In this document: piece by piece, positions 3,570 to 5,555 of the stretch
Layout: each line of letters opens with the position of its first letter
How positions within the stretch are numbered: position 1 is the stretch's first letter
NCBI GenBank assembly: GCA_048885865.1
Contig: JBHLLF010000050.1
Span: forward strand, 1 to 17,281
Reading direction: 5' to 3'
Source of the DNA: Candidatus Hermodarchaeota archaeon
Lineage (GTDB): Archaea; Asgardarchaeota; Thorarchaeia; Thorarchaeales; Thorarchaeaceae
Length of the DNA stretch: 17,281 bases
Made by a program: the position numbers and the translations under genes
The notes under the pieces: generated by a model
What the model saw: the letters and a program-made list of their open reading frames with translations, nothing else
Told to the model about the DNA's origin: nothing
Databases searched by the model: none

Positions 3570-4577
3570 TTGGGATTTGACATACTTACTGATGGTCAGG
3601 CCATCATGGATTCCTCAAGTGCTGATTTTGAAAATCAAATGAGAGCGGCCTATGAGAGTCGATTTGAGGTGTTTGGAGCCGAATTACTATGCTACAGTCC
3701 CACTGCCTATCCCTACAAGATAGATGACCATCAACAGGTCAGCCGCCACAATTTCATCTCTATTAGTGTCACAGGCACATCCTGTTCTCTTCAGTGTGAT
3801 CATTGTGAAGGACGTCTTCTCAAGGGGATGGAACCTGCAATGACTCCTGACCAACTCGTTCAGGTATGTAAGGAGGTGAGAATGCGTGGAGCAGAGGGAG
3901 TATTGATCAGTGGAGGGTCTGATTCAAAGGGCCACGTTCCGCTTTCTCAGTTTGGAGAGGCAATAAAGACAGCCACCTTGGAACTAGGTCTCAAAGTCGT
4001 TGTCCATACCGGCCTTGTCGATGACAAGACCGTTCAATTGTTGAAGGAAGCATCAATCGATGCTGCAATGCTGGACATAATCGGAAGCAGAGAGGTCTCA
4101 GAGAGGGTCTATCACTTGGAAGATGGCCCCGAGCGCATGGAACAATCACTCGAATTGCTATATGCAGCAGGCATTCCAACTGTTCCACACGTCTTAGTGG
4201 GACTTGATTACGGTTCACTTGGAGGCGAGATGGAGGCTCTAGACATGATATCTCGCACTAACCCGGCCGGAGTGGTGATTATCGCTCTGAGCCCATTGCG
4301 GAAGACTCCAATGGCTTCTGCTATGCCACCTTCTGCGGAATCAATAGGCAAAGTTCTCACCGTCGCTCGCCTGGCAATGAAAGAAACACCAGTCCTACTC
4401 GGATGTGCAAGACCAATAGGACAACACAAGATAGAGACAGACAGGTATGCCCTTCAAAGTGGAGTCAACGGAATCGCATACATAAGCCAAGAAGGTGTCG
4501 ACTACGCAAAGTCACTCGGTCTAAAGCCGGTGTTTAGGGATGTGTGTTGCAGTCTTGCCTATGAAATAATCAGGTAG
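3570..4577 (+). CDS. lipS1: Radical SAM protein, biotin-synthase-like; probably LipS1-type archaeal lipoyl synthase component
   Basis: CxxxCxxC (CSLQCDHC) and LISGG, plus GCAR and C-terminal CC (VCCS), the GC(M/A)R and CC signatures recalled for Thermococcus LipS1. Start may be ATG 3606. Confidence 0.72.
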   Translation: MGFDILTDGQAIMDSSSADFENQMRAAYESRFEVFGAELLCYSPTAYPYKIDDHQQVSRHNFISISVTGTSCSLQCDHCEGRLLKGMEPAMTPDQLVQVCKEVRMRGAEGVLISGGSDSKGHVPLSQFGEAIKTATLELGLKVVVHTGLVDDKTVQLLKEASIDAAMLDIIGSREVSERVYHLEDGPERMEQSLELLYAAGIPTVPHVLVGLDYGSLGGEMEALDMISRTNPAGVVIIALSPLRKTPMASAMPPSAESIGKVLTVARLAMKETPVLLGCARPIGQHKIETDRYALQSGVNGIAYISQEGVDYAKSLGLKPVFRDVCCSLAYEIIR

Positions 4578-5139
4578 TCCATCTGCTGACAACAAAACTC
4601 GCAAGCTCATACCCCAGGTCAAAAAACCACAGCCCGACAGCTGCGGCAAAGAAACCAGTCCATATGATTGACAGGAGGACTACTGATACTTTCAAAGTGA
4701 ATCTATAATAGAAAAAGTACGATATCCATTGTTTCTTGCCACTATCTGCCCAGTCGTTCCCACGTTCGTCTACTATTGCTGCCAGAAGCAAGATGATTAG
4801 GAGAGCAGAGAGCATCACTCCGTTGGATATTGCAGGTATACCGCGCAGCAAGAGCAATGCACCTATCATGATGAAACCAACTAGAAACTGAGGCCTGTTT
4901 ACCTTCCCTGACAATAGAACTCCAATGACGATTGCACTCAGAAGAACCAGATCCCATTCAGACAGTGTCATAATTTGGCCAAATAGCACTCCTGAGAGCG
5001 CCAGGGGCACAACTGCAGCAGTTGGTCGATTTAGTTCATCAAGAAGGTCATCACCTATCTTTAGAGTCAAGCCAGCCAGTAAATATGCAGCATAGTAAAT
5101 AAGCCACTCAATCACCAAGTTCGCCATCCAGGAATTCAC
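4570..5139 (-). CDS. Archaeal multi-pass membrane protein of unknown function
   Basis: About 6 hydrophobic segments with acidic motifs KIGDDLLDE and IVDERGNDWAD; 8-nt convergent overlap with the radical SAM gene. Confidence 0.8.
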   Translation of the reverse strand: MNSWMANLVIEWLIYYAAYLLAGLTLKIGDDLLDELNRPTAAVVPLALSGVLFGQIMTLSEWDLVLLSAIVIGVLLSGKVNRPQFLVGFIMIGALLLLRGIPAISNGVMLSALLIILLLAAIVDERGNDWADSGKKQWISYFFYYRFTLKVSVVLLSIIWTGFFAAAVGLWFFDLGYELASFVVSRWTT

Positions 5140-5155
5140 TGTGGATTAGAATAGT

Positions 5156-5227
5156 GGCTCCTCAGTCTAACTATGACTCGTCGCTGGGCATTTCTGCCCT
5201 CAGATAGCCAATTGCATCATCGGAGCC
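5156..5227 (-). ncRNA. Double-guide box C/D methylation guide sRNA targeting LSU (23S) rRNA
   Basis: Minus strand: GGCUCC-G-AUGAUGC(C)-AAUUGGCUAU-CUGA(D')-GGGCA GAAA UGCCC-A-GCGACGA(C')-GUCAUAGUUAGA-CUGA(D)-GGAGCC. It has a 6-bp terminal stem and two K-turn geometries. The guides are complementary to the conserved LSU rRNA sequences UAACUAUGAC (H69) and GUAGCCAA. Confidence 0.85.
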
Positions 5228-5270
5228 TAGTCTGCATTCGATGATTGATTGATAAAAGTTGGTACATGTT

Positions 5271-5555
5271 CTACTGAAGAACCACCGGAGTTCCTATGGC
5301 CTGTCCGGGTAGGTTTGTGTGGAATTTGGCACGCACAACGCCACTATTTCCATGAGGTCCCAGAACCTTCCCCAAAAACTCCCTTCCGGTTTCTGAAGTC
5401 CATTTCACTCTCCGACCCACAATTGTAGCAGCTTCGGCACGAGTCTTGATGGCGTCGAATAGCAAGAGCACTTGATTGGGATGCTGAAGGTGCTTGCCTC
5501 TTCTATAGCTTGTAACAACACCTTGTAGACCCTTCTTGACTTCTTTCTTGGACAA
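5271..5555 (-). CDS. rpl35ae: 50S ribosomal protein L35Ae (eL33)
   Basis: GVVTSYRRGKHLQHPNQVLL...GRRVKW...GKVLGPHGNSGVVRAKFHTNLPGQAIG is the L35Ae signature. True start is probably TTG at 5555, preceded by AGGAGG and TTATAT (5601-5606, - strand), not 5708. Confidence 0.93.
   Translation of the reverse strand: MSKKEVKKGLQGVVTSYRRGKHLQHPNQVLLLFDAIKTRAEAATIVGRRVKWTSETGREFLGKVLGPHGNSGVVRAKFHTNLPGQAIGTPVVLQ

Follow-up and report, generated by a model that had tools for sequence, protein, structure and literature searches.

The loop of helix 69 (H69) in large-subunit rRNA is part of an intersubunit bridge that contacts small-subunit helix 44 and the A-site tRNA. Crystal structures of archaeal sRNPs show a 10-bp guide-target duplex at guide positions 2-11, archaeal sRNPs work best in vitro with a 12-nt spacer and about 10 bp, and the usual arrangement between boxes D' and C' in archaea is a K-loop of 3-9 nt. 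In hyperthermophilic archaea, H68, H69 and H71 are methylation hotspots (PMC4644070; PMC6009581), and Ignicoccus sR91 and Sulfolobus Sac-sR113 already carry the H69 guide discussed here (Dennis et al. 2015, BMC Genomics 16:632, PMC4644070). The Ignicoccus hospitalis RNA is likewise a dual-guide RNA: by the +5 rule, in which the nucleotide opposite guide position 5 is methylated, its D guide, AUCAGAGUUACG-CUGA, is aimed at the second A of GUAACUCUGA, its D' guide lies on the neighbouring H70/H71 strand, and it is labelled I91 in the H69 and 1940-1950 blocks of the published 23S alignment (PMC4644070). In Sulfolobus acidocaldarius, the D guide of Sac-sR113, CUCAGAGUUACU-CUGA, places +5 on the same H69 adenosine of GUAACUCUGA, and the RNA is labelled S113 in the H69 block (PMC4644070).

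In eukaryotes, SNORD46 (U46, RF00218) and yeast snR63 guide 2'-O-methylation of the homologous H69 adenosine, which in yeast is Am2256, guided by snR63, with yeast Psi2258 corresponding to E. coli 1915 (PMC2794176). The Rfam consensus of SNORD46 carries GUCAUAGUUAcACUGA, identical over 10 nt to the D guide of the thorarchaeal RNA described below. SNORD46 and snR63 are longer than that RNA, SNORD46 is intronic in RPS8, and their proteins are Snu13, Nop56 and Nop58. The C/D sRNA families of Pyrobaculum follow the same box order and +5 rule with individual promoters, aim two guides at rRNA sites <100 nt apart and often lie beside or overlapping protein genes (Lui et al. 2018, PMC6009581). A literature search for Asgard C/D sRNA catalogues, ribosome modification maps and Thorarchaeota biochemical data found nothing specific.

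We analysed a 17,281-nt stretch of an Asgard (Thorarchaeota) genome, here called the window, in which a preliminary description had placed a double-guide box C/D sRNA on the minus strand. The 72-nt element (Table 1) is very probably a genuine, conserved dual-guide box C/D sRNA and a member of a known RNA class, with expression and methylation as predictions; homologue conservation, covariation and a covariance-model search all support this assignment. Read along the minus strand, its order is GGCUCC-G-AUGAUGC-AAUUGGCUAU-CUGA-GGGCAGAAAUGCCC-A-GCGACGA-GUCAUAGUUAGA-CUGA-GGAGCC, and the boxes, the 6-bp terminal stem and the internal hairpin all lie where they had been described. K-turns can be drawn for both box pairs, each with a canonical stem, a 3-nt bulge (GAU for C/D, AGC for C'/D'), tandem G.A/A.G pairs, a U.U (or C.U) pair and a G-C pair, in agreement with the geometry proposed earlier. 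The C/D K-turn sits beside the terminal stem and deviates from consensus only at the seventh nucleotide of box C, which is C rather than A. Box C' of the internal K-turn, GCGACGA, is degenerate but keeps its GA..G core. No open reading frame of at least 40 aa overlaps the element on either strand. Its peculiarities are minor: the internal K-turn is a true one, the D' spacer is short, and the RNA lies between rpl35ae and a conserved membrane-protein gene, behind its own putative promoter.

Table 1. Features of the sRNA locus, in window coordinates
Feature	Position	Strand	Remarks
rpl35ae (ribosomal protein L35Ae)	5271..5555	minus	Pfam PF01247 E 4e-21; NCBIfam PRK04337 98 bits, above cut-off
BRE/TATA-like element AACTTTTATC	5251..5260	minus	-33..-24 from the first G of the RNA; putative promoter
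Box C/D sRNA, 72 nt (predicted)	5156..5227	minus	from sequence; covariance-model score 103 bits, E 5e-23, sole match in genome
Terminal stem, 5' half GGCUCC	5222..5227	minus	pairs with 5161-5156
Box C AUGAUGC	5214..5220	minus	consensus RUGAUGA, seventh nt is C
D' guide AAUUGGCUAU, 10-nt spacer	5204..5213	minus	GGCUA core invariant in alignment
Box D' CUGA	5200..5203	minus	its C pairs with G of C' in 35/36 homologues
Internal hairpin GGGCA-GAAA-UGCCC	5186..5199	minus	canonical stem of C'/D' K-turn; covariation; RNAalifold
Box C' GCGACGA (degenerate)	5178..5184	minus	GA..G core invariant
D guide GUCAUAGUUAGA, 12 nt	5166..5177	minus	UCAUAGUUA invariant in 36 homologues
Box D CUGA	5162..5165	minus	C.GA invariant in alignment
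Terminal stem, 3' half GGAGCC	5156..5161	minus	partner of 5' half
Uncharacterised membrane-protein gene	4570..5139, likely ATG 5127	minus	directly downstream of the RNA; conserved

When the 3.58-Mb genome was scanned with a strict pattern (C-N9-13-D'-N3-21-C'-N10-13-D plus a terminal stem of at least 4 bp), this locus was the single match, and each of three shuffled genomes gave none. The fold z-score of the sRNA was -2.4. The element is present at 20 further loci found by BLAST against relatives and at 45 further loci found by scanning one genome of each prokaryotic species for the exact pattern, and the named records that carry it are all Thorarchaeota, Promethearchaeota (Asgard) or an uncultured-archaeon MAG. 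The preliminary description had proposed looking behind rpl35ae in other Asgard genomes and had named loss of the boxes at orthologous loci as grounds for rejection. The sRNA was found there, with tight synteny in nearly all thorarchaeal loci, and the boxes are kept across the 36 distinct homologues that we aligned.

In this alignment, the boxes are invariant, as are the guide cores UCAUAGUUA and GGCUA, and the sequence is free to change in the flanks, in the hairpin loop and at those guide ends that do not pair, a pattern typical of a guide RNA. The UGAUG of box C is invariant or nearly so; box D' is mostly CUGA or CCGA, with two homologues showing CCUA and one AUGA. The inner four pairs of the terminal stem do not vary and the outer two show compensatory changes (GC to UA, GC to AU). 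Four of the five pairs of the internal hairpin also change in a compensatory manner (for example GGGCA/UGCCC vs GGACA/UGUCC or GGUGA/UCACC), and the bulge between the hairpin and the GA of C' is 3 nt in every homologue inspected, bearing out the earlier claim of a true stem between D' and C'. Over the alignment, 95% of the cells of the specified structure are paired and six pairs are compensatory, values reached by none of 500 shuffles. RNAalifold, given the same homologues, independently recovered the terminal stem and the internal hairpin. The minimum-free-energy fold of the single sequence pairs the two guides together and was rejected because the alignment fold does not back it.

A covariance model built from the alignment found a single copy in 25 of the 26 genomes sampled from the organism's own family (f1), one in the single genome of f2, the one other family of the order, and one in 12 of 13 genomes of family f5. 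Weaker matches (25-38 bits) occur in other families of the phylum, f5 included, and all of them keep xxAUAGUUAxx-CUGA. Rfam at gathering thresholds matched no family. A search of 401 nt at permissive E-values returned only SNORD83 (RF00137; 19.7 bits vs a gathering score of 35, E 0.32) and SNORD46 (15.9 bits vs 40, E 1.1), both below the threshold for membership.

Since neither 23S nor 16S rRNA is present in the assembly, and no fragment with H69/H70 sequence was found in its 117 contigs, target sequences were taken from the 23S rRNA of four relatives in two genera. All four read ...GGGACUAACUAUGAGUCUCUUAAGGUAGCCAAAUGCCUUGUCGG... and are identical over the H69 target. In these sequences, the D guide (positions 2-11) pairs with the loop and 3' strand of H69 (CUAACUAUGA) through 10 Watson-Crick pairs. 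This was the sole 10/10 site in the 23S and 16S rRNAs of a same-genus relative and 19 tRNAs of this genome, where the next best site had 8, and the chance of a 10-mer match in ~4.6 kb is ~0.004 by simple arithmetic. A guide of ~12 nt with ~9-10 bp in the +5 register, as expected for this RNA class, is seen in the D guide and partly in the D' guide.

By the +5 rule, the D guide is predicted to select the second A of UAAC, an adenosine that published sequences, the 23S alignment and the relatives' 23S rRNA all agree on. This nucleotide is the E. coli A1913 equivalent, because it falls there on the E. coli ruler of the Dennis et al. alignment and because yeast Psi2258 equals E. coli 1915, so the site named in the preliminary description stands; its equation with yeast Am2256 (snR63) likewise agrees with PMC2794176. 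The H69 sequence expected earlier needed revision in part. This lineage reads CUAACUAUGAG and not GUAACUAUGAC, with ...UAUGAG instead of ...UAUGAC, so that guide G1 is unpaired and guide G11 pairs with a lineage-specific C, and the 10 Watson-Crick pairs at positions 2-11 are retained. The loop-closing pair of H69 is itself flipped within the phylum: it is C...G (CUAACUAUGAG) in Thorarchaeota and family f5 (loci L021-L024, L121-L122), and G...C (GUAACUAUAAC or GUAACUCUGAC) in f9, f18, E. coli and the other archaea of the Dennis et al. alignment.

Across Asgard families, the D guide tracks its H69 target at two positions. Thorarchaeota and f5 combine H69 C-UAACUAUGA-G with the guide UCAUAGUUAG (10 bp, on its own 23S rRNA for f5), and f18 combines G-UAACUAUAA-C with UUAUAGUUAC (10 bp, own 23S rRNA); in f9 the D guide forms 8 contiguous pairs plus 1 with its own 23S rRNA. 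Because the guide follows H69 at two positions, this covariation is the strongest computational evidence for the predicted interaction. The D' guides differ among the families, and all of them land in H70-H71: on the 1940 equivalent in f5 with a perfect 10-bp duplex, on the G1945 equivalent in f9 with 9 bp, and, by manual reading, on the G1945-equivalent site in f18 with ~8 bp. The covariation and the drifting D' target offer an example of dual-guide evolution around a fixed anchor site.

In the window, the D' guide pairs with GUAGCCAA of the relatives' 23S rRNA through seven Watson-Crick pairs at positions 2-8 and a G.U at position 1. Its +5 position falls on the first C of GCC in H70, the E. 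coli C1934 equivalent, 21 nt downstream of the H69 site, matching the target and distance claimed earlier. Homologues support this site assignment because their longer guides extend the pairing at the same site: the D' guide of locus L029 forms 10 Watson-Crick pairs at positions 2-11, those of L048 and L065 form 9 plus a G.U, and all three gain one more U. Methylation there is doubtful because a 10-nt spacer and a duplex of seven Watson-Crick pairs plus G.U fall short of the in vitro optimum, and we put the chance that the D' guide methylates the C1934 equivalent at roughly even.

Another stretch of rRNA pairs with the same region of the sRNA. In the 23S rRNA of relative G010 (L022:4034-4045), AUAGCUAAUUGC, ~490 nt downstream, could pair over 12 positions, one of them a G.U, with GCAAUUGGCUAU, which consists of the D' guide and the final two nucleotides of box C. 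We rejected it as an alternative D' target despite the 12/12 pairs, because it lies in a variable helix, is absent from relatives G015, G011 and G019, and requires the last two box C nucleotides. G015, the closest relative, keeps CCAAUUGC. The match is probably a coincidence and possibly a genus-specific extra contact.

The preliminary description implied that the H69 guide was new, which the published sR91 and Sac-sR113 contradict (PMC4644070). The D' guide of sR91, UAACUCGGCAAGC, is directed to the G1945 equivalent and not to C1934, its guide letters diverge where H69 diverges (CUCUGA vs CUAUGA), its terminal stem and D'-C' spacer are different, and its host is a crenarchaeal hyperthermophile. 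It aligns end to end with a homologue from Asgard family f17 (L120), the shared letters being nearly all boxes or guides, and its similarity to the thorarchaeal form is weaker. Common descent with sR91 is plausible and, since guides are constrained by their target, not provable. Sac-sR113 is short (listed at 59 nt) and lacks an internal hairpin; its D' guide is unrelated, and its overall similarity is weak. The likeness to SNORD46 and snR63 is limited to the boxes and the guide. Functional equivalence with these eukaryotic RNAs is clear from the predicted target, and descent cannot be demonstrated because that target dictates the shared letters. Compared with archaeal C/D sRNAs in general, the thorarchaeal RNA has a 15-nt D'-C' spacer with a covarying 5-bp hairpin and a true internal K-turn, and a D' spacer of 10-11 nt rather than 12.

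The rpl35ae gene starts with TTG after a GGAGG Shine-Dalgarno sequence, and its TAG stop at 5273-5271 leaves the 43-nt gap to the RNA that had been noted before. In nearly all loci, ~40-60 nt separate the end of this gene from the RNA, and the two are also adjacent in families f2 and f18, a conserved gene order indicating that the linkage is old. The only conserved block of the spacer is AAnTTTTATC at -33..-24; of 44 distinct upstream regions, 40 have YTTTAT starting at -30 or -31. In position and sequence, the block is what one would expect of an archaeal BRE/TATA box, and tRNA promoters elsewhere in the genome look similar, for example AAACTTTTATAAC before a tRNA-Thr gene.

On the other side, the RNA is followed by an open reading frame of 185-189 aa encoding a very hydrophobic protein; its possible start codons are a GTG, 16 nt beyond the end of the RNA, and a likelier ATG, 28 nt beyond it. 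A homologue of this membrane protein lies on the same strand in all 62 loci with downstream sequence (45-91% identity), and its extrapolated start is 0-38 nt past the RNA in nearly all of them and ~90 nt in two. The protein matched no Pfam family, and the only hint of its nature was a non-significant UbiA-like NCBIfam match (E 0.009). With the gene starting 0-38 nt after the RNA, there is no room for another promoter. From the conserved BRE/TATA-like box and the close downstream gene, we infer that a separate transcript most likely begins with the RNA and probably takes in the membrane-protein gene as well. These same two features argue against the analogy, drawn in the preliminary description, to snoRNAs hosted in ribosomal-protein transcripts.

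Two thorarchaeal loci depart from the usual spacing, with ~630-650 nt inserted between rpl35ae and the sRNA (L033:6466-7095 and L034:6050-6702 in the oriented copies). In L034, an open frame within the insert could encode a small hydrophobic protein, and beyond the insert the sRNA retains its TATA-like box; L033 has a CTATAA-like element instead, at a similar position.

Several other readings of the locus were weighed. That short motifs fell together by chance in an intergenic spacer and have no function can practically be dismissed: the boxes are indeed short, and C and C' are off consensus, but the single genome match against none in the shuffles and the unique 10-bp rRNA match speak for a real RNA, and maintenance with covariation across more than 40 genomes already refutes chance. 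A much stronger contender, to which we give somewhat less than an even chance, is that only the D guide methylates, the D' guide acting as an auxiliary or chaperone pairing that tethers H70 beside H69 while the 23S rRNA folds, or being partly vestigial. The short spacer and duplex in the window fit this, as do the 5-8 pairs in most homologues, the D' box variants CCGA, CCUA and AUGA, and the shift of the D' target among Asgard families (C1934, 1940 and G1945 equivalents), which means that no single D' methylation is conserved. In Pyrobaculum, ~45% of sRNAs aim both guides at nearby rRNA sites, which has been read as a folding-chaperone role (PMC6009581). On the other hand, the GGCUA core never varies among the 36 homologues and covariation preserves the C'/D' K-turn, which implies a selected function; the 9-10 bp reached at the same site by some homologues and the perfect 10-bp D' duplex in f5 also count against this reading.

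The origin of the RNA and its role as a leader can be read differently as well. Processing from the 3' region of the rpl35ae mRNA without a promoter of its own, as for a hosted eukaryotic snoRNA, would account for the tight synteny with rpl35ae in nearly all thorarchaeal loci and its adjacency in f2 and f18; no obvious terminator separates the gene from the RNA, and co-transcribed sRNAs are known in other archaea (PMC6009581). We consider this origin unlikely, as the BRE/TATA-like block is conserved and matches same-genome tRNA promoters, a TATA-like box is kept in L034 despite the ~650-nt insert, and in families f5 and f9 the RNA has no rpl35ae in its neighbourhood. Read-through from rpl35ae may nonetheless contribute to expression. 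L7Ae binding to mRNA leaders is reported in archaea, and the element could be a cis-regulatory K-turn 5' leader through which L7Ae or ribosome-biogenesis status controls translation or stability of the downstream mRNA, the rRNA complementarity being secondary. The downstream gene present in every locus, its closeness to the RNA and the lack of space for a separate promoter would suit such a leader, as would the Shine-Dalgarno-like GAGGAG within the 3' half of the stem. A primary leader function is nevertheless very improbable. The two antisense elements and the +5 register in which they meet rRNA are under the strongest selection, changes in H69 between families are matched by changes in the guide, the guides persist in different surroundings in f5, f9 and Ignicoccus sR91, and the RNA does not lie at a constant distance from the start codon.

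The organism encodes the core proteins that such a guide requires. Fibrillarin (PF01269, 292 bits) and Nop5 (PF01798, 230 bits) are adjacent on contig C5 (55380-56863, minus strand), the classical archaeal pair, and L7Ae (PF01248, 95 bits) is on C67 (2045-2323). A weak second match to a fibrillarin-like methyltransferase (28.5 bits) lies at C76:9615-9821. Given the observed anatomy, conservation, covariation, complementarity and protein machinery, the sRNA would be made and used as follows. Transcription most likely starts at or beside G5227, from the RNA's own BRE/TATA promoter just behind the rpl35ae stop, and probably continues into the membrane-protein gene, after which the sRNA would be trimmed to a protected sRNP. 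In that particle, L7Ae would sit on both K-turns, the terminal one of C/D and the internal one of C'/D', which is closed by the 5-bp hairpin and is not a K-loop; a Nop5 dimer and a pair of fibrillarins would be its other components. D-guide nucleotides 2-11 would form the 10-bp duplex with H69 of 23S rRNA, and fibrillarin would 2'-O-methylate the nucleotide opposite guide position 5, the A1913 (yeast A2256) equivalent. The D' guide on H70 may direct less efficient methylation of the C1934 equivalent, or mainly hold neighbouring rRNA segments during folding.

This locus adds a well-supported, previously unannotated C/D guide RNA to the Asgard archaea, with a specific prediction: a ribose-methylated adenosine at the tip of H69, in the intersubunit bridge touching the A-site tRNA, at the same nucleotide that is methylated in yeast and human. 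Because the same guide exists in Crenarchaeota, it marks no special Asgard-eukaryote link, and its main value lies in better annotation and as a target for mapping methylation in Asgard ribosomes. A bolder and rather unlikely proposal is that the RNA belongs to an ancient dual-guide lineage (D to H69 A1913, D' to H70/H71) that predates the TACK-Asgard split and is ancestral to snR63 and SNORD46, and that in Thorarchaeota it also serves as the 5' leader of the membrane-protein mRNA. If such a lineage existed, Am1913 would be among the few rRNA ribose methylations with an unbroken guide lineage from archaea to humans, and a leader role would couple the membrane-protein gene to sRNP assembly.

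A loose genome-wide search for further C/D sRNAs (a 9-mer antisense to rRNA, a C-like box and CUGA) gave 36 matches vs 17-24 in shuffled genomes, so close to the background that we make no claim on the number of other sRNAs in the genome. Matches at C2:~73130-73205, C20:~18210-18285 and C18:~45570-45640, all on the plus strand, might be C/D sRNAs, the count as a whole being near background. At the locus itself, the 3' end of the sRNA (5156-5165, minus strand), CUGAGGAGCC, includes the Shine-Dalgarno-like GAGGAG. In loci L005 and L036 the downstream ATG is only ~10 nt past the RNA, so the terminal stem could mask the ribosome-binding site there.
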